Shown: piece after piece, positions 9,977 through 28,844 of the stretch | Numbering within the stretch: the stretch's first letter is position 1 | Layout of the letters: each line of letters starts with the position of its first letter | Virus record (IMG/VR): IMGVR_UViG_3300031949_000091 | Coordinates: 1 to 40,468 of that record | Strand: one strand, 5' to 3' | DNA length: 40,468 nt | Origin: a virus | Taxonomy: Duplodnaviria > Caudoviricetes | Translations under genes and position numbers: made by a program | Notes under the pieces: model-generated | The model's input: only the letters and a program-made list of their open reading frames with translations | What the model was told of the DNA's origin: nothing | Databases searched by the model: none

Positions 9977-10423
9977 CTACACTTGCCGGCGGGGCTGCTG
10001 GCGGCGCAGCAGGCCCCGGCTGGCGGGCGATAGGCCCAATTTATCCGACAGGCTGATCAGTAGGCGGGCGGCGTTGTTGGCCACAGTCAGATATGGGTTA
10101 ACCTGGGCCTCCCCGGCGGTTCCCCGGACCACCAGCCCCAGCCGGCTTACCTCGTTTTCGGCGGCAACCCAGCGGCTAAAGATCCGGCAGTACAACCCCA
10201 GCAGGTTGGCGTCCTGGCGACTGATCTGTCCGTCTAACAGTTTGCTGAGGCGTGTAAACTCCCCGGCGGCGATCGGGTCCAGGGTCTTGGGCTTGTCAGC
10301 GGCCCGCAGGGGCTGATCGGGCATCGGCGGATCGGTCCCCGGCGCGGACATCTGACCCAAACTGGCCAGGTCGGGCAGCGGCTCCACGGCTCCGCGTTTC
10401 TTAGATCCCTTCTTCGCTGGCAC
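9977..10423 (-). CDS. Terminase small subunit, P27 family
   Basis: D..LL.LYC....W......V...GLV........NPYL...........LGLSPASR signature. Confidence 0.85.
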   Translation of the reverse strand: MPAKKGSKKRGAVEPLPDLASLGQMSAPGTDPPMPDQPLRAADKPKTLDPIAAGEFTRLSKLLDGQISRQDANLLGLYCRIFSRWVAAENEVSRLGLVVRGTAGEAQVNPYLTVANNAARLLISLSDKLGLSPASRGLLRRQQPRRQV

Positions 10424-13272: not shown

Positions 13273-13365
13273 CTACCACAACATCCCTTGGCCCGAGTCG
13301 ATGCATCCGCCCAGCGCCGTCAGGATCGCCAAAATCGGTGCATACAACGCTAGTACCGTTGCCAT
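13273..13365 (-). CDS. 30-aa lipopeptide precursor
   Basis: Below track cutoff. AGGAGG RBS, MATVLALYAPILAILTALGGCIDSGQGMLW, lipobox LGGC. Confidence 0.65.
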   Translation of the reverse strand: MATVLALYAPILAILTALGGCIDSGQGMLW

Positions 13366-13409
13366 TTAAGACCTCCTGTTCTGCATTCCCCCTGCCTTGC
13401 CCGTGAACC

Positions 13410-13826
13410 TCATTCCGTCACGGGTTGCGTGCTTGCCGGCTGTGATGCTGGATCCAGCACGGGGGGATCCAAACCCTGTTGGTGGGCCAGTATTCTCAGT
13501 AGAACATCGCTTTGTTGCTGCAAGCCGGCCGCCTGGGTTTTGATTAGTGCCAGCAACTCATCAGCAGAAACGCTCGTTTCGCTCGTTGGGTTCACCCGAA
13601 TGCCGGCTTTCACCTTGCCGGGCGCCCCCAATAACACGGTCGAGCCCTGCTCCATGCCGAGATTCGTCGCACTCTCCCAAGCAACCTCACCGCCGCTGTT
13701 CGTATCCTTTACGCCCTGGATGCCTGCGTTGAGGATCTTGATCTGATCGTCCACAGGCATCCCCTTACAACCCGTCAGCCCCGCCATGATCGACCAGCCC
13801 GCCAGAATGCACAGTAGCACCCTCAT
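13410..13826 (-). CDS. Lipoprotein
   Basis: AGGAGG RBS; MRVLLCILAGWSIMAGLTGC lipobox; C-terminal coiled coil. Confidence 0.75.
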   Translation of the reverse strand: MRVLLCILAGWSIMAGLTGCKGMPVDDQIKILNAGIQGVKDTNSGGEVAWESATNLGMEQGSTVLLGAPGKVKAGIRVNPTSETSVSADELLALIKTQAAGLQQQSDVLLRILAHQQGLDPPVLDPASQPASTQPVTE

Positions 13827-19960: not shown

Positions 19961-20723
19961 ACCCCCGCCGACAGTCTACTATTAGTAGCTGGCGGCCCAG
20001 GCCCATCGTCAACAGGCAACTAAAGGGCGACCGGCTTCGCAGGTATTCGGTCAGATCGGCGGTCTTGGCATTCTGGCAGCTCCACCAGGCGAGTTGTATT
20101 GGCTCCGCTGGCGCGCTTAACCAGACCGCCAGCCACCCGGCGGGCGCATCCATCTGGTCGGCAAGCCAGGCATGGGCCCAGAACCAGCTCGCGGTGGTCT
20201 GGTCGGCAAAGTGGGCGACGATGTTAGGGTGGTTCACGCCATAGGACCGGCAAAAGTCGATCCGGGGGCCCGCGGTGGTGTCGATCAGATAGTAATAGTG
20301 CTGGATCCCGGCGGTCCGCCCGTAGCTCGTGATCTGCCAACAATCATTTAACACCTGTTGACAATCGACGCCCCGCGGCCAAGGGATCTGCTCGGCTAAA
20401 ACCTGCCGGGCAAGGGCGGGATTCAGCCCGCCCAATTCACAACAGGCTAGGCGCTGGTCCAGGTCCCGGGCGGCATGGTAGCGCCACAATAGTTTGACCT
20501 CCGCCGGCTGGGCGGCGTTCCGTCCGGTGATCACCAGCGCGCCGATCGCGGCGATCGCACAGACAGCGGCCAGGCACCACCACAACCACGGGTTCCGGGC
20601 ATTTTCTGGGGACAGCCGACCCCAGGGTCCGATCGTCAGGTCTACATTTGGGGGCGGGGGTGGTGGTGACGGGCGGGACTTCTGCATGGGTTTTTGGTCC
20701 GGCTGTGGGGGCTGCATGGTCAT
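19935..20723 (-). CDS. Single-pass membrane protein coupled to the integrase
   Basis: Pro-rich N-terminus, TM WLWWCLAAVCAIAAIGALVI; ATGA overlap with int stop. Confidence 0.65.
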   Translation of the reverse strand: MTMQPPQPDQKPMQKSRPSPPPPPPNVDLTIGPWGRLSPENARNPWLWWCLAAVCAIAAIGALVITGRNAAQPAEVKLLWRYHAARDLDQRLACCELGGLNPALARQVLAEQIPWPRGVDCQQVLNDCWQITSYGRTAGIQHYYYLIDTTAGPRIDFCRSYGVNHPNIVAHFADQTTASWFWAHAWLADQMDAPAGWLAVWLSAPAEPIQLAWWSCQNAKTADLTEYLRSRSPFSCLLTMGLGRQLLIVDCRRGFTHKPPHH

Positions 20724-21829
20724 GTCCTCTTGGGTGGGTTGGGTGGGGCTGCCGGCAGGTCAGCCAGCTGCAAGGCGGCGGCGATCCGGTCGGCGTGGGG
20801 CGTCAAGTCGGTGTAATGTTTTAGGGCGATCGGCGGGCTGTGGCCCAGCATCCCGGCGGCGGTCTGGTCGGCGATCCCGTAGACCCGCAGCCGGCTGCTG
20901 CAGGTCAGCCTGAAATCCTGAAACCGGTGGTGCTGGATCCCGGCGACGTCACACAATCGGGCAAACCGCTTGCCGGCCAGTGGGTCGGCGGGCCAGATCC
21001 GGCCGGCTTCCGGTTGGCCCTCGTAAAGCCCGTCGATTGCGGCTGCCAGCGGTTCGGGCAGCGGGACCAGGCTGATATGGGCGGTCTTAGTGTGCGTGAC
21101 CCGGACAGTCCGCGCGACCACGTCGACGTCGTAGTAATGCAGCCCCAGAATATGGCTCTTGCGGGCCCCGGTAAACCAGGCGGTCAGCAGCAGGGCGTAG
21201 GTGGCCAGGTCGGGGGCACGGGCCAGCAAGGCCCTAAACTCCGCCTCAGTGATGGCGTGGTGTTGGCGGGGCATCGGGCGCAGCCGGCAGGCCCGGGCGC
21301 GATTGACTGGGTTATCCACCATTGCGGGCGGGCGCAAGTCCAGGGCGTAGTTACATAAGGCCCGCAGGTGGCGCAGTTCGGTTTTGATTCGGCTGACGCT
21401 GGGCGGGCGGCGTTTGCTGTAGACCTTACCGCTGGGTCCCCGCTGGCGCGTGGGTTGCTCTAGTCGGCGGCGGACATAGCGGTCGATCACGGCGGGGCTT
21501 AGTTGGTCGGTCCTCAGTTTGCCGGCCCGGCCGACCGTTTCGGCCAGCCGCTCGACCAGGGCGGTCATATCGGCCTCATAGGCCCCGGGCGGTCCGGTCC
21601 GCGGGCGGTCGGCGAGCCAATGCTGCAGCAGCTCCGTTAGTTGCAGTGGGCGGATCCGCATGGTCAGCCCTATATCCAGTTCGGTCTGCTGGCGGATCAG
21701 GGCGTCGCGGGCTTGGCCCGGGTCCGCTGTTCCGGTGGTCTGGCTGACGGTAACCCCCTCAATCCGCCAGCGGATCTCAAAGTTGCGCCCCGGGCGGCAG
21801 ACAAGATAGGCTTTCGGTGGGCGTCGCAT
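20720..21829 (-). CDS. int: Tyrosine recombinase/integrase
   Basis: TGAR..., HTKT, FQDFR, MLGH, KHY catalytic set; N-terminal arm-binding-like strands; AGGAG plus ATG at 21829. Confidence 0.92.
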   Translation of the reverse strand: MRRPPKAYLVCRPGRNFEIRWRIEGVTVSQTTGTADPGQARDALIRQQTELDIGLTMRIRPLQLTELLQHWLADRPRTGPPGAYEADMTALVERLAETVGRAGKLRTDQLSPAVIDRYVRRRLEQPTRQRGPSGKVYSKRRPPSVSRIKTELRHLRALCNYALDLRPPAMVDNPVNRARACRLRPMPRQHHAITEAEFRALLARAPDLATYALLLTAWFTGARKSHILGLHYYDVDVVARTVRVTHTKTAHISLVPLPEPLAAAIDGLYEGQPEAGRIWPADPLAGKRFARLCDVAGIQHHRFQDFRLTCSSRLRVYGIADQTAAGMLGHSPPIALKHYTDLTPHADRIAAALQLADLPAAPPNPPKRT

Positions 21830-21957
21830 CGGAACTCCTGGCCAAAGGACGCCGTCACTGGCGGCTGCCAGCGCCCAGGCTCCGCACTGGGGGCACCAAT
21901 ACCAGACCCCGGCGGTCACCAGTTCGCAGCCAGCGGCGGATCTGCCGGTCCATCCAG

Positions 21958-23583
21958 TCAGCCGGCGGCTTTCCCGTTATCTATATCCGGCTCAATTTCG
22001 CTGACCTGGTCGGTCTGGGCGTCGACGTTCTGTTGGTCGACTATCTGCTGCTGCAGCCGGTTGATGGTCCGGGCTTGCTCGGCGTTGCGTTCGGACATCT
22101 CGGCGATCCTGGCGGCTTGGGCGCTGGCCTGGTGCTCTTGCCGCAGAATCCGGGCACTCAGTTGCCGGGCGTCGTCGGCGGCGGTCCGCAGATCCGCTCG
22201 GGATGGCGTCCAGTCGGGGATCGCCTCCGCCGGCAGGGCCAGGCGGCACCCGCAGCAGCGCGGCCAGTGCTTGGGGTCGCCTGTATGGGCGTACAGATTG
22301 GCGGACCGACGGCGCCCGCACTTTTGGCAGACCGCCCAGGGCGGCGGTCCGATTATCTTGTCTTGGTCGTGGTCCCAATAGACCATGTCTCCGGCGGTGA
22401 TTAGATCGTCAGTCTGAAAACCGATCGGCCCGCCGTAAAAGTCCAGCGGGTAGGGTTCGGCCCCGGTCGGTGGGCGGGCCAGGATCTTTAGGACAATTTC
22501 GTCCGCCCGCCGGCGGCTGGCGGCGCCCAGGCGGCCCATCATTTCGACGCTGTTGTCCCACCACTCGCGGTCCTCGGGGCTCATTCCAGCGCGGGCCCAG
22601 TTGCGGACCCTGTCCTCAAAGGTCTGCCCCTCGTGGCGGTTGATCTCGGCGGCCAGGGGCGGGTAGCGGTCGGCCAGGGCTTTAACCTTTTCCAGGATGC
22701 CCATCTGGTCCCAGGCTTCTGGCTTGGGCGGGCTCTGTTCCTCCGCCCAATCCGCCGGCGCGGCGGCGCTTCGCAATCGCTCCAGTACTGCCCGGGCGCG
22801 CCGTATCTGATCTTGCCCGTCGGCGTTGGCCTCCAGTTCCCCGACCCGTTGCCTTAATGCCGGATCGCTGGACGGTTGTTTGCCGGCTGGCGCTATCGTC
22901 GGGACCGACAGGACCACACTGGCCTTTTTCTCGCAGTCATCGCAGACCGGAAACTTACCCACCAGCCCCTCCAGGGCGCAAAATCGCACGTGTTTGCCCT
23001 TTAGTGGTCGGTGGCAGCCTGGACAGGCGGCCCCGGGTCCTGCCAGCCGATAGGGTTGGCGGTCCAGTATCCGGCACTCCAGGCGGTTGTCCCGATCGGC
23101 CCATAGTCTGGACAGCTCGGCGATAACGGCGGCAGGGGCCCTACTGTGCCAGGGCTCCTCCGCGGTCGGTTGTCTGGTCAGATGGGCGATCTGGGCTTCC
23201 AGACCGATGATCCTTAATTCGCGCTGGTGGACCTGTTTCAGCAAGTTGCGGATCTCCCGCTGCACGTAGTCAAGATCTGCGCCGGCGGGGGTGCGTTCGG
23301 CTTGTAAACCTTCCACCTGGGCGTTCCAGGCGTGGCAGGTTATATCCCGTGTCATTCCAAGGGCGGAACCGATTGGGCAATCGTTACTGGGGCAGCGGAT
23401 GATCCAGTTAACCCCTTTAAGGTTCCTGTTCCGCTGGACAAGGGGCTGGGTTCCGCACCACGGGCAGGGTAGCGGTTCGGTCGGTATCTGGGCATGGGGG
23501 GTCGGCGGGGCAGGTGTGGCGTCCGGGCTCCGGTGGGTTGGTGGCCCAGTGGTGTCCATGTTCTGACTTGTCGGCTTTGTCAT
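21958..23583 (-). CDS. Mosaic protein with Lar-like N-terminal zinc finger, further CxxC pairs and coiled coils
   Basis: PLPCPWCG...IRC...C...AWN; CPGC/CDDC, CQKC/CCGC; 541 aa. Confidence 0.65.
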   Translation of the reverse strand: MTKPTSQNMDTTGPPTHRSPDATPAPPTPHAQIPTEPLPCPWCGTQPLVQRNRNLKGVNWIIRCPSNDCPIGSALGMTRDITCHAWNAQVEGLQAERTPAGADLDYVQREIRNLLKQVHQRELRIIGLEAQIAHLTRQPTAEEPWHSRAPAAVIAELSRLWADRDNRLECRILDRQPYRLAGPGAACPGCHRPLKGKHVRFCALEGLVGKFPVCDDCEKKASVVLSVPTIAPAGKQPSSDPALRQRVGELEANADGQDQIRRARAVLERLRSAAAPADWAEEQSPPKPEAWDQMGILEKVKALADRYPPLAAEINRHEGQTFEDRVRNWARAGMSPEDREWWDNSVEMMGRLGAASRRRADEIVLKILARPPTGAEPYPLDFYGGPIGFQTDDLITAGDMVYWDHDQDKIIGPPPWAVCQKCGRRRSANLYAHTGDPKHWPRCCGCRLALPAEAIPDWTPSRADLRTAADDARQLSARILRQEHQASAQAARIAEMSERNAEQARTINRLQQQIVDQQNVDAQTDQVSEIEPDIDNGKAAG

Positions 23584-23798: not shown

Positions 23799-24053
23799 TC
23801 ATCTTCGAATATCGCGATTCGGTCCCACTAGCCTGATTGGTCGGCATGTCAGTCCTCGACAGTTGGGGCATAATCGGCTGTCGTCGTCCAGAATCGGAAC
23901 GCAATTCACGCACCCTATGGCCGAACACCGATCACAGGGGGCGCAGGTCGATTCGTAGAGAGGCACGCGACAGAAATCGCACGTTCCCAAGTCATCTAAT
24001 CTATCGCAGTCCATTCCATCAATATCTTTTGGCATAACACCCTCATTCCTCAC
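23799..24053 (-). CDS. Small protein with four CxxC pairs (zinc finger)
   Basis: CDFC, CDRC, CVNC, CPNC. Confidence 0.6.
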   Translation of the reverse strand: MRNEGVMPKDIDGMDCDRLDDLGTCDFCRVPLYESTCAPCDRCSAIGCVNCVPILDDDSRLCPNCRGLTCRPIRLVGPNRDIRR

Positions 24054-24504
24054 TCGGCCCCGGCAGTAGTGGCGGCATCCTGCCCTCTATGTAGGATTGC
24101 TTGACCTGTGGAATCGCCCAGGCCCCGAAGGTGCGGCCGTCGGGCAGCACCGTCTGCGCCAAAAACTCCTCCGGCAGGGTGGTTATGCCACTTTCTACCG
24201 CCTCCAGTTTGGCTTTGATGATCAGGGCAAGGGCCCGCCACCGCTGGCGGACCCCTTGCTCATAGGCGTTTTCGATACTCCTGGCGTTGTTGCGCTTCTT
24301 GCCCGTCGGCGTCCGGGTAAATTTCTCCCGATCCGGCAGCGGCAGCTCGAAGCGCACACGCAACCCGTCGATTCTAAACCCCAGCGTGGCCCTTTGATCG
24401 TCCCAGCCATACGCAAAGGCATCCGCCCCGTAGCGGGTTAGGGTCCGCTCTATCTCGGCGCGGCTGCGGTCCGATGGGACGTCGGTTTGGCTGGCATACC
24501 TCAT
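24043..24504 (-). CDS. Conserved uncharacterised phage protein
   Basis: YA..T.V...RSRAEIE..L.RYGA...RQRWRAL.L.IKAKLEAVESGI pattern common in prophage early regions. Confidence 0.75.
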   Translation of the reverse strand: MRYASQTDVPSDRSRAEIERTLTRYGADAFAYGWDDQRATLGFRIDGLRVRFELPLPDREKFTRTPTGKKRNNARSIENAYEQGVRQRWRALALIIKAKLEAVESGITTLPEEFLAQTVLPDGRTFGAWAIPQVKQSYIEGRMPPLLPGPSEE

Positions 24505-26050: not shown

Positions 26051-26344
26051 TTAGCCCTCCCCCTGCTGGCTGTGCGCGGTTGTGGTGGCCGGTCGGCCCC
26101 GCGGGGCCCCTTTGACCTTGCGGACCAGGACGATCTTAGCGGCCAGGTCGCTGCTGGTTCGCTCCAGCAGGTTCCGCCAACCCGGGCTGCTGGTGTAGGC
26201 GTGGACCGTCGCCACGGCGATCGGCTCTCCCAGCTGACGGCTGGCAGCCCGGGCCACTTGTAGGTAACTGATCGGGTGGCGGCTGCCGGTCGGGATCGCC
26301 CGCCAGATAGCCTGGGCTATTGGCCCAGCTCGGTAGCGTTTCAT
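26051..26344 (-). CDS. Basic HTH-like DNA-binding protein
   Basis: SYLQVARAASRQLGEPIAVATVHAY helix-turn-helix pattern; AAAGGGG RBS. Confidence 0.55.
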   Translation of the reverse strand: MKRYRAGPIAQAIWRAIPTGSRHPISYLQVARAASRQLGEPIAVATVHAYTSSPGWRNLLERTSSDLAAKIVLVRKVKGAPRGRPATTTAHSQQGEG

Positions 26345-26374
26345 TGTGCGGGACCCCTTTCTTGCTCTTGGCCA

Positions 26375-26403
26375 ATACTAACACCCCGGCGGTATGGGGT
26401 CAA
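26375..26403 (-). promoter_or_regulatory. Internal sigma70-type promoter
   Basis: TTGACC-17 bp-TAGTAT with TGn; overlapped by ACCCC-N8-GGGGT dyad. Confidence 0.5.
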
Positions 26404-26404
26404 G

Positions 26405-26596
26405 CTAGTCGGTAAACTTGACCGTTTTGCCAACACTCGGCAGCCGGTCAACCTGCTGCTGGACCCAACGGCGCAGGTGGGCATCGGCTATCCGCAGGGC
26501 GCTGGCGGCGACCCGGTCAAACTTATGGCCCGGTCGGCGGGCGGCACACTGGGCCAGGATGTAGTTCCGCAGGTGGGCTTGGTTAATGATCATCAT
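26405..26596 (-). CDS. Small histone-fold-like protein (prokaryotic/phage histone candidate)
   Basis: 63 aa, basic; short helix, loop RV (DRVAASAL), long helix, loop GKTVK; GGAG RBS. Confidence 0.6.
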   Translation of the reverse strand: MMIINQAHLRNYILAQCAARRPGHKFDRVAASALRIADAHLRRWVQQQVDRLPSVGKTVKFTD

Positions 26597-26606
26597 AGGT
26601 CTCCAA

Positions 26607-27524
26607 CTATTTGCCCTTGGGGCGATTCAAGTAACGGCGGACAGATTCGTAACGGTCGGCCAGGCGGCGCAGATCTGCGCGGGCGAGTTCTTCACGCTGG
26701 CGGGCGGCGTGCCAGGCGGCGGCGTCGATAAACTCCAGGGTGGCGGTTTCGATCAGGTCGGCGATCGTCTGGGGGTCCAGCGCGTCCAGCTCCCAGGAAT
26801 CCTCTCCGAACCGATCGGCATAACCGGCGAACCGTGAATCGGTGGTCTTGGCGGGATTGGGCGGCGGGTTGTATTGCTCGACCTGGTTCCAGTTCAACGC
26901 CAGCCGGCGGACCTTGACGGCGTCGGGTCCGGCGAACATCGCCAGCCGGTCGGCGATGTCCCGGCTCATATCAATTCCGCTGGGGTCGTGGTCGCCCAGG
27001 TGTAGGATCACCGCGGCCTGTCCCGCCTGTCGATAGGCTCGGATCCGGTGGTGGCCAGCGGCCCACATTTCGGACTGGCTGGTGTAGCCCTTGCAGGCGA
27101 AATAGGGCAGGCGCATGCGTTCGCAGACGCCGGCGATCACCCCGATCAGGGCTTCTTTTTCGATCCAGACCTCGACCCGATGGGCTTGATTCTCCCAGTA
27201 GTCGACGCTGTACTGGGCGGCGCAATCGTCAATGATGGCGGCGGGGCTAGACCAGGTCGGCAGCCGCTTTAGGTTGCGGCCACGGTCTTCGATGGCCTCC
27301 CAGTCTATCAGGCCCGCCAGCCTGCCGGCGTTAATGATCTCGCCCAGGCGCTTGTACTCACTTTGCTGGTTGGCCAGCAGGTCCCGGCTGACAAACTGAT
27401 AATAGAGTTGGCGCAACGTCAGCCGGAAACCCTTGGCCAGGTACTCGTCGATGATCTCGTTGGCCTGGTTGATGGCTGCCTGGCGGTCGGCGGTAAATCG
27501 CTGGTTGATGTAAGCTATTCTCAC
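26607..27524 (-). CDS. Spo11/TopoVI-A-like winged-helix plus Toprim protein
   Basis: TLRQLYY (candidate catalytic Tyr), EVWIEKEA, KGYTS, LGDHDPSG (DxD), WELDAL. Confidence 0.8.
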   Translation of the reverse strand: MRIAYINQRFTADRQAAINQANEIIDEYLAKGFRLTLRQLYYQFVSRDLLANQQSEYKRLGEIINAGRLAGLIDWEAIEDRGRNLKRLPTWSSPAAIIDDCAAQYSVDYWENQAHRVEVWIEKEALIGVIAGVCERMRLPYFACKGYTSQSEMWAAGHHRIRAYRQAGQAAVILHLGDHDPSGIDMSRDIADRLAMFAGPDAVKVRRLALNWNQVEQYNPPPNPAKTTDSRFAGYADRFGEDSWELDALDPQTIADLIETATLEFIDAAAWHAARQREELARADLRRLADRYESVRRYLNRPKGK

Positions 27525-27827: not shown

Positions 27828-28157
27828 TCAGCGGATCGCCTGGGCGACCCGGTTACAGATATTGCAATAGTCGGCGTCCCCGTTAACTGGGCTGCCGCAG
27901 TCCACACAAACCCGGCTGGATTCCTCGACCCGAACCAGCGTCACCCCGCGGGCGACCAGCCGCTCGAGATTGGCTTGTAGCTGCGGATCGGCGGCGATCT
28001 CGGCGTCTGTCTGGCCCACCACATACTCGATCCGCTGGGGCTTAAAGGCGTGAAAGATCGCCGGCTGCCAGTTGCCGTCCGGATGTTGGTAGTAGCGGCG
28101 GTGGGCGACCAGGACCCAGGTTTGGCCAATCTCGAACCCCTGGGGAATCGCGGCCGC
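27828..28157 (-). pseudogene. Orphan 3' half of an interrupted gene
   Basis: Open frame AIPQGFEIGQTWVLVAHRR...PAIFHAFKPQRIEYVVG...CVDC...CNIC with no evident start/RBS before an in-frame TGA at 28211. Confidence 0.6.
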
Positions 28158-28205
28158 TTGTCCCCGCGACCCCGGGGCCGGGCTGACCCAGAAAGGACAA
28201 GCACC

Positions 28206-28844
28206 ATGTCACCGCCCGGAACCAAAGCACAGCGAGCGATCTGGCCCCTCCACCCTTTCAAAGCGAAGTCGCAAGATGCCGAAGGGAACGATCTGAGAAA
28301 CTCTATACGGCCCTGGCACTTCCCGATCGCCACGGACGATCCGTCAGTCGTTGTTACCAGAGACAGAGGTTTCCGATTCACGCGCCATTACGTGCCGACT
28401 GAAGCCGAACGCGCCACCATGGATACAATCTACCCCCACTGCAACGCTGCAGAACGTCCCCCCTGGCATCGAATACAGGCCAATCTGATAGGTCTAGGGT
28501 ACAAAGCTGGGGATCTACAGAACCTGTCCGTACCATCAATAATGACGATGCTGGAGCAACGAGGGACCCCGCCGCCAGCGGCGCCATCACCACAATCATC
28601 ACCAGCGTGGAAACGATTGAATGTCAGGGAGACGCGAAGCGGCGACACCGCTGATCTGGATGGCAAGACATATCGACTTAGGGGCGGGCGTGATGCCGCG
28701 TTCTTGAAGGCCCTGCAAGAAGCCGAGGGCGGACCGAGGAAGGCCAACGACTTAGAGTCCGTGTTGTGCGAACGTCCAAGCCGGATATACAAGCGGCTGG
28801 CGAAAGAACTTCAGGAAATCATCGACAAGCCCGGACGGGGGTGA
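28206..28844 (+). CDS. Inserted gene, 212 aa, possible C-terminal winged-HTH
   Basis: AAAGGA RBS plus ATG at 28206; opposite strand and more A-rich than flanks; FLKALQEAEGGPRKANDL...RPSRIYKRL. Confidence 0.65.
   Translation: MSPPGTKAQRAIWPLHPFKAKSQDAEGNDLRNSIRPWHFPIATDDPSVVVTRDRGFRFTRHYVPTEAERATMDTIYPHCNAAERPPWHRIQANLIGLGYKAGDLQNLSVPSIMTMLEQRGTPPPAAPSPQSSPAWKRLNVRETRSGDTADLDGKTYRLRGGRDAAFLKALQEAEGGPRKANDLESVLCERPSRIYKRLAKELQEIIDKPGRG

Follow-up and report, generated by a model that had tools for sequence, protein, structure and literature searches.

A stand-alone Mini-A topoisomerase homologue next to a predicted two-helix mini-histone in a temperate phage: probably two independent accessory genes

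When a phage gene encoding a topoisomerase VI-A-like protein is directly followed by a gene encoding a very small histone-like protein, do the two products work together on DNA, or are the genes independent passengers of the same operon? The preliminary description of this locus proposed a two-gene unit that wraps and cleaves DNA. From the evidence presented here, we consider it probable that the known Mini-A and a predicted two-helix mini-histone are independent accessory genes, joined by modular shuffling in the operon of a temperate phage.

The window, i.e. the whole stretch of DNA analysed, comprises 40,468 bases with a completeness of 93% (CheckV), and its genes lie on the minus strand almost throughout. 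It codes for a gpA-type terminase, a lambda-type portal, a capsid, a tail tape-measure-like protein, a tyrosine integrase (20720-21919) and a DNA methylase; these genes identify it as the genome of a temperate tailed phage. The two genes of interest are located within a stretch of short, mostly unannotated genes, with the tail region on one side and the integrase on the other. The two best named matches of Mini-A come from Planctomycetes, a likeness in sequence that hints at the host of this phage. A single contig of run X1, which is possibly the window's own source, covers both genes without differences, while runs X2 and X3 contain scattered short pieces of the window only. Elsewhere in the window, positions 27967-28005 are also matched at high depth by further contigs of runs X1 and X3, which suggests a piece common to other elements. 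The sole sizeable plus-strand ORF of the region that resembles a real gene (28050-28844) has a C-terminus similar to that of winged-helix regulators, contains a promoter-like site (28514-28543) and has no Pfam or PHROG match. On the minus strand, a 153-aa ORF (24043-24504) is a member of phrog_17260 (E = 4e-61, function not known), and a 541-aa ORF with a weak Lar-like zinc ribbon (21958-23583) is found immediately upstream of the integrase.

Judging from its signature, length and context, the 305-aa protein (26607..27524, minus strand, GTG start) is the known Mini-A, a stand-alone phage homologue of Topo VI-A described in 2019-20 (PMC7671362). In the accessible text of this source (Takahashi et al.), Mini-A proteins are viral, have about 300 residues and carry the motifs RxxY/FY, E..DxDxxG and xWELDAL. 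All the motifs first read in the 305-aa ORF were confirmed, i.e. TLRQLYY (residues 36-42), IEK (121-123), DHD (178-180) and WELDAL (244-249). They belong to the 5Y-CAP (R38-x-x-Y41-Y42, here R38-Q-L-Y41-Y42), the Toprim (E122, D178-x-D180-x-x-G183) and the T2BI box (S243-WELDAL249). Across 52 aligned sequences, Y42, E122, D178, D180, G183 and the stretch from W244 to A248 are invariant, and R38 and Y41 are conserved in at least 90%. The protein matches phrog_6247 ('DNA topoisomerase') with an E-value of 6e-109. All 7998 scored candidates were homologues at E ≤ 1e-3, and 84 GenBank phage records contain a homologue, some of them annotated 'DNA topoisomerase'. A sequence search of the PDB with Mini-A yielded no informative match. 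Using the AF2 model (pLDDT 89) as a Foldseek query, we obtained Topo VI-A as the best match (E = 3e-4) and in most of the top rows, which, together with the phrog_6247 match, upholds the initial Spo11/Topo VI-A-like assignment. A distant Mini-A-like type was also observed in the phylum of genome G001, where about 15 of 400 genomes carry it; its example at locus L419 (1279-2337) ends in VELDAL and matches the local profile with E = 5e-60. This type may constitute a subfamily of its own, belonging to genomic islands.

The second gene (26405..26596, minus strand) encodes the putative two-helix histone-fold protein of 62-63 aa. The gap of 10 nt between the two ORFs is exact (26597..26606, minus strand, TTGGAGACCT) and contains, as read from its letters, the small gene's ribosome-binding site (GGAGA). 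This site is 3 nt upstream of a first ATG and 6 nt upstream of a second one; the spacing is better for the second ATG, so the 62-aa form is likelier, and the database entry for the protein has 62 aa. The 63-aa protein has no informative match in Pfam, PHROG, NCBIfam or PADLOC, a word-index search with it returned itself alone, and tblastn against 50,697 GenBank phage records returned nothing. Its family was recovered by the full HMMER scan only, with 55 representatives including the window's protein at E ≤ 1e-3, and this conservation indicates that the small ORF is a real gene. Family members are mostly found on viral contigs, and ten relatives are annotated no further than 'hypothetical protein'. 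Within the phylum of G001, the gene was found in 2 of 401 genomes when 15 candidates were scored in each; in the genomes searched, it is uncommon on the chromosome.

The preliminary description assigned to this protein a basic composition, which is correct (11 K/R, 4 D/E), and a histone-like layout, most of which stands: the RV loop, the long helix and the GKTVK loop are present, but the first helix, described as short, extends over residues 6-20. The layout is alpha1 (6-20), L1 with R28-V29, alpha2 (31-50) and L2 with P53-S-x-G56-K57-T58-V59, with no alpha3. In alignment A2 (52 sequences, three longer fused forms being left out), R28, V29, P53, G56 and T58 are conserved in at least 90%. The most conserved residues are R28, K57 and T58, in the DNA-contact loops, and the basic alpha1 positions 6, 10 and 21; the core has a median net charge of +6. 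L2 reads PSxGKT, and the RV and KT[I/L/V] loops are kept. HMM searches yielded 82 proteins, 73 with the motif and 9 without it. The arginine of the R-D clamp is replaced by glycine in 72 of these 73 motif-bearing proteins, and the C-terminus lies at most 5 residues past the threonine in 53 of them. After addition of the members found by patterns, the latter was true for 129 of the 156 sequences that represent the family at 70% identity, those lacking the motif having been removed before counting. Among the 73, aspartate at +7 occurs in 6 of the 34 that are long enough, including the window's protein, which ends in GKTVKFTD, 5 residues past T58, and thus retains the D of the clamp. A kinship-blind and control-free covariation scan of the 156 sequences, which we do not count as evidence, gave a few long-range pairs (13-59, 26-59 and 33-59; z about 3-4); these would fit pairing of L1 and L2 between chains.

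Some members of the family depart from this simple form. In three records (P0141, P0166 and L238:9839-10456), the mini-histone is extended by a hydrophobic, signal-like segment and by another domain, which may be a genuine fusion or result from the loss of a stop codon; P0141 and P0166 presumably resemble cell-wall hydrolases. Locus L212 contains two diverged copies about 3.3 kb apart (10000-10230 and 13335-13592), possibly a heterodimer pair. Another member, P0203, is found on a 548-kb contig named Candidatus Asgardarchaeia, and the family may therefore reach archaea or archaeal proviruses.

Is this small protein a histone? The AF2 model of the 63-aa protein (pLDDT 95.7) consists of two helices (6-20 and 31-50), with no third helix. 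Searched with the A2 profile, the PDB gave a single match under E = 0.1, the face-to-face histone HTkC (9F2C, E = 2.3e-4). In VIA-align, the top 22 rows are all histone folds, ahead of the first non-histone, with Z-scores of at most 5.8 where the tool's guide is 8; HTkC, HLp and HBb are found at Z 5.5-5.8 with an rmsd of about 2 Å, below the guide for a safe match. Also among the VIA rows are TAFs, NC2 and CENP-S/X, which we take to be histone folds. Foldseek with the model ranked histones mostly first, with E ≥ 0.36 and none at E ≤ 1e-3, and the ESM Atlas placed the protein with unnamed viral clusters (0.95), the nearest named family being PF00808 (0.85). No Pfam histone family was found at E = 0.1 across the 52 members, except CENP-W in one of them. 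An hhalign comparison with five histones of nucleosomal type, taken from G001's phylum, gave a probability of 4.5% over 24 columns. Nucleosomal-type domains with RKT..D intact were observed in 5 of 301 genomes of this phylum (L413-L417), as parts of longer open frames of 116-402 aa. According to the accessible text of PMC13260811, the histone signatures are RV in L1, RKTV in L2 and an R-D clamp into alpha3; the conservation of R28-V29 and K57-T58-V59 matches the first two, whereas the R of the clamp is absent from the family. The HTkC profile match, the AF2 model and the VIA rows thus support the histone-fold-like assignment made initially, with evidence of modest strength.

We infer a handshake dimer: each chain's L1 (R28-V29) would pair with its partner's L2 (K57-T58-V59), and the paired loops would hold the DNA backbone irrespective of sequence. 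As far as the accessible parts of PMC12701072 and PMC11390915 describe them, face-to-face tetramers are built through the end of alpha2, L2 and alpha3; because alpha3 is lost here, the mini-histone is likely a dimer. HBb is the model of a dimeric bending histone (PMC11894785, accessible text). Since the alpha3 surface for face-to-face tetramers is lost, the mini-histone would bend DNA of the phage or of the host as HBb does, and would not wrap it in the manner of a nucleosome.

The protein could instead be a histone-derived or histone-like two-helix protein with a non-bending job. It might, for instance, bind and inhibit another protein, or poison a host histone by forming heterodimers with it and thereby blocking the tetramer. 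The missing alpha3 and R-D clamp, both kept by known histones, the moderate structural scores and the variable accessory genes all around the mini-histone would suit such a role. Moreover, face-to-face histones occur in Planctomycetota (PMC11390915, accessible text), from which the two best named Mini-A matches also come. On the other hand, the best-conserved residues of the family are precisely those of the DNA-contact loops and the basic positions of alpha1, and the core is positive in net charge (median +6). We therefore regard a non-bending job as unlikely.

Homologues of Mini-A and of the mini-histone are very rarely found side by side. Our survey covered 190 Mini-A loci with flanks of up to 5 kb, of which 110 are viral and 80 come from genomes. 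These were the best 80 of 576, the best 80 of 379 and 34 from a single-sequence scan, so that distant Mini-As are under-sampled; they form 169 clusters at 90%, and 188 have at least 500 nt downstream. A mini-histone was found near Mini-A in 1 of the 190 loci (L130), with either of two profiles, and single-sequence phmmer over the first 34 loci found nothing. L130 is a prophage-like region of a Planctomycetales MAG, in which the mini-histone is 1.6 kb downstream on the same strand as Mini-A, with about five ORFs in between. For the reciprocal survey, patterns gave 80 and 138 loci, with the family present in 79 and 130 of them (209 loci, with some redundancy). Taken together with the window and L130, the first set forms 42 groups, and 152 of the 209 loci have at least 600 nt upstream. 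Mini-A was found in none of the 209. At the scale of whole records, the mini-histone is present in 0 of 100 Mini-A phage records (out of 110), the same profile being positive in G001, and Mini-A in 1 of 50 mini-histone phage records (out of 79), about 25 kb away.

This survey of gene neighbourhoods, named beforehand as a refuting test, ran against linkage of the two genes, and the two-gene wrap-and-cleave unit is not borne out among homologues. A conserved module of Mini-A and histone is likewise not supported, given this near-absence of linkage in loci and whole records. The neighbours of Mini-A vary freely among the neighbourhoods listed, and a recurring neighbour family of the mini-histone is found in at most 4 of the 42 independent locus groups. 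In the most recurrent of these neighbourhoods (4 of 42 groups; L219:8684-9730 and L269:10024-12277), the mini-histone is flanked by an ATPase gene and a peptidase-like gene, which we take to encode a MoxR-like AAA ATPase and a metallopeptidase/VWA-like protein.

The two genes nevertheless co-occur in the window, in L130 and in G006, and the second mini-histone genome, G164, carries a distant Mini-A type on a separate contig; in the phylum of G001, Mini-A-like genes are present in 16 of the 401 genomes. These co-occurrences exceed expectation for two rare genes across all viruses. By likeness to the window's genes, the Mini-A of L130 ranks 47 out of 191 and its histone 112 out of 292; the two pairs were therefore not co-inherited, and the L130 and G006 proteins are no close kin of the window's for either gene. 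Such co-occurrences are consistent with accessory genes drawn from one pool and do not amount to a cassette; they leave room for a weak functional pull between Mini-A and the mini-histone.

A joint action of the two proteins, in which the mini-histone bends DNA, replaces the B subunit and offers a bent substrate to the Mini-A dimer, would treat the pairing as optional, and other Mini-A phages would rely on a bender of the host, e.g. HU or IHF. It would agree with the spacing of 10 nt within one operon, with a second prophage carrying both genes on the same strand inside 1.6 kb, and with a third record carrying both. In the accessible text of PMC7671362, Topo VI bends DNA by the H2TH domain of its B subunit, a domain absent from Mini-A, and a topoisomerase VI-like gene is present in IHF-histone clusters (PMC11390915, Fig. 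7b legend). However, no other adjacency exists among the 190 and 209 loci, none of the 100 Mini-A phage records has the histone, and the pairs are not sister lineages, all of which makes joint action quite unlikely. It is very unlikely that the smallest histone fold yet seen, a two-helix dimer lacking alpha3 and the R-D clamp, serves in this phage as a plug-in bender replacing the B subunit of Mini-A, with the Spo11-like dimer and the histone forming a B-less type IIB cleavage machine.

The third gene of the locus was initially described as HTH-like. This 97-aa ORF (26051..26344, minus strand) begins 60 nt past the small ORF and is possibly a winged-HTH gene: its low-confidence Atlas model (pLDDT 0.53) has weak structural matches to winged-HTH proteins (TM about 0.5), but no family match was found in Pfam, PHROG, NCBIfam or PADLOC. 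A sigma70-like promoter candidate, TTGACC-17-TAGTAT with TG (26375..26403, minus strand), which is a consensus match only, lies in the gap of 60 nt ahead of the gene; 3 such candidates were found, against 1.0 ± 1.0 in shuffled sequences. This suggests that the 97-aa gene may have its own start, and with its own promoter candidate it was rejected as a third member of a module.

What, then, could Mini-A do as an independent accessory protein? As in the preliminary description, no partner is visible: GHKL, Topo VI-B transducer and SbcC-type ATPase (Walker B) families are absent from the whole record, and PF13589, PF02518 and PF09239 have no match in it, control genomes being positive in each case. 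The five local proteins have no PADLOC match. On these missing partners, a Wadjet or a Topo VI system was rejected. The stand-alone state was first presented as unusual, but the B-less state defines the published Mini-A subfamily (PMC7671362), so that a missing partner is the norm and no surprise; the accessible text of this paper reports no Mini-B in the neighbourhood of Mini-A and gives the function of Mini-A as unknown. In our literature search, no title or abstract opening reported Mini-A biochemistry. A decoy against Toprim defences of the host was another early suggestion. Such a decoy, catalytically dead and aimed for example at Wadjet JetD, could draw on the missing partner and on a fold resembling the C. 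glutamicum nuclease (8b7f, E = 4e-4) and, more weakly, JetD (7til, E = 0.03). It is extremely improbable, given that none of the 52 aligned sequences departs from the catalytic tyrosine or the metal ligands (Y42, E122, D178 and D180), that Topo VI-A occupies most of the top Foldseek rows and that PADLOC gives no match. As an independent accessory protein, Mini-A is likely a Mg-dependent, tyrosine DNA-cutting dimer without ATPase partner. It would use Y42 to cut DNA in replication, recombination or the turnover of host DNA, on its own or together with a partner encoded elsewhere.

If the mini-histone dimerises and bends DNA, a histone can do without alpha3 and the R-D clamp, both of which are described as near-universal. 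The protein would then be a 60-residue object on which to test how small a histone can be, and would represent a common group of DNA-architecture proteins of phages that escape Pfam and PHROGs. The window's Mini-A would lend itself readily to asking whether a type IIB A subunit cuts DNA without a B subunit.

Compared with known systems, the 305-aa protein is like the Mini-A subfamily (PMC7671362; PHROG 6247) in length, RxxYY, E..DxDxxG, xWELDAL and phage origin; both are without a nearby B subunit, and no difference was found with the subfamily as the accessible text describes it. The Wadjet nuclease JetD/MksG and Topo VI-A/Spo11 share the winged-helix/CAP and Toprim architecture with Mini-A, but their systems differ from the window, whose record has neither an SbcC-type ATPase nor a GHKL subunit. 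The IHF-histone cluster of Schwab et al. 2024 resembles the window in that a histone gene is close to a topoisomerase VI-like gene (PMC11390915, accessible text). Its histone is of another type, with RxTxxxxD and a dimerising C-tail, and an IHF-like gene is its constant partner, whereas none is found among the window's ORFs near both genes.

The mini-histone shares with HTkC (9F2C), HLp (9QT0) and HBb/Bd0055 (8CMP) the order alpha1-L1-alpha2-L2, an alpha2 of 20 residues, a basic character, RV in L1 and KT followed by a hydrophobic residue in L2. It differs from them by about 7 more residues in alpha1/L1 and by the lack of alpha3 and of the R-D clamp, the latter because PSxGKT stands where they have RKT. 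The RxTxxxxD and truncated alpha3 of face-to-face histones are thus both missing (glycine in 72 of 73; no third helix in the model). Like the 'phage histones' of Schwab et al. (PMC11390915) and VTTHFP, VHHHFP, VFFHFP, BBVHFP and VKHFP (PMC13681535), it is a small histone fold of tailed phages, and it shares with the Schwab type the lack of RxTxxxxD. In the accessible parts of these two catalogues, the phage types keep a truncated alpha3 or gain a C-terminal tetramerisation helix, the trait of 'phage histones' and VTTHFP; the mini-histone has neither and stops 5 residues past T58. Its motifs are absent from three supplement alignments of PMC13681535, the main supplementary PDFs of both catalogues lying outside this comparison. 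Seven phage record ids are absent from the histone-fold table of PMC13681535 and five from its file of 966 histones, in which control ids were found. Our literature search returned these two catalogues, compared in part, and no paper on an alpha3-less phage histone. By the readable parts of both catalogues, the mini-histone is set apart from the types described there and is likely an unpublished variant of the alpha3 histones.
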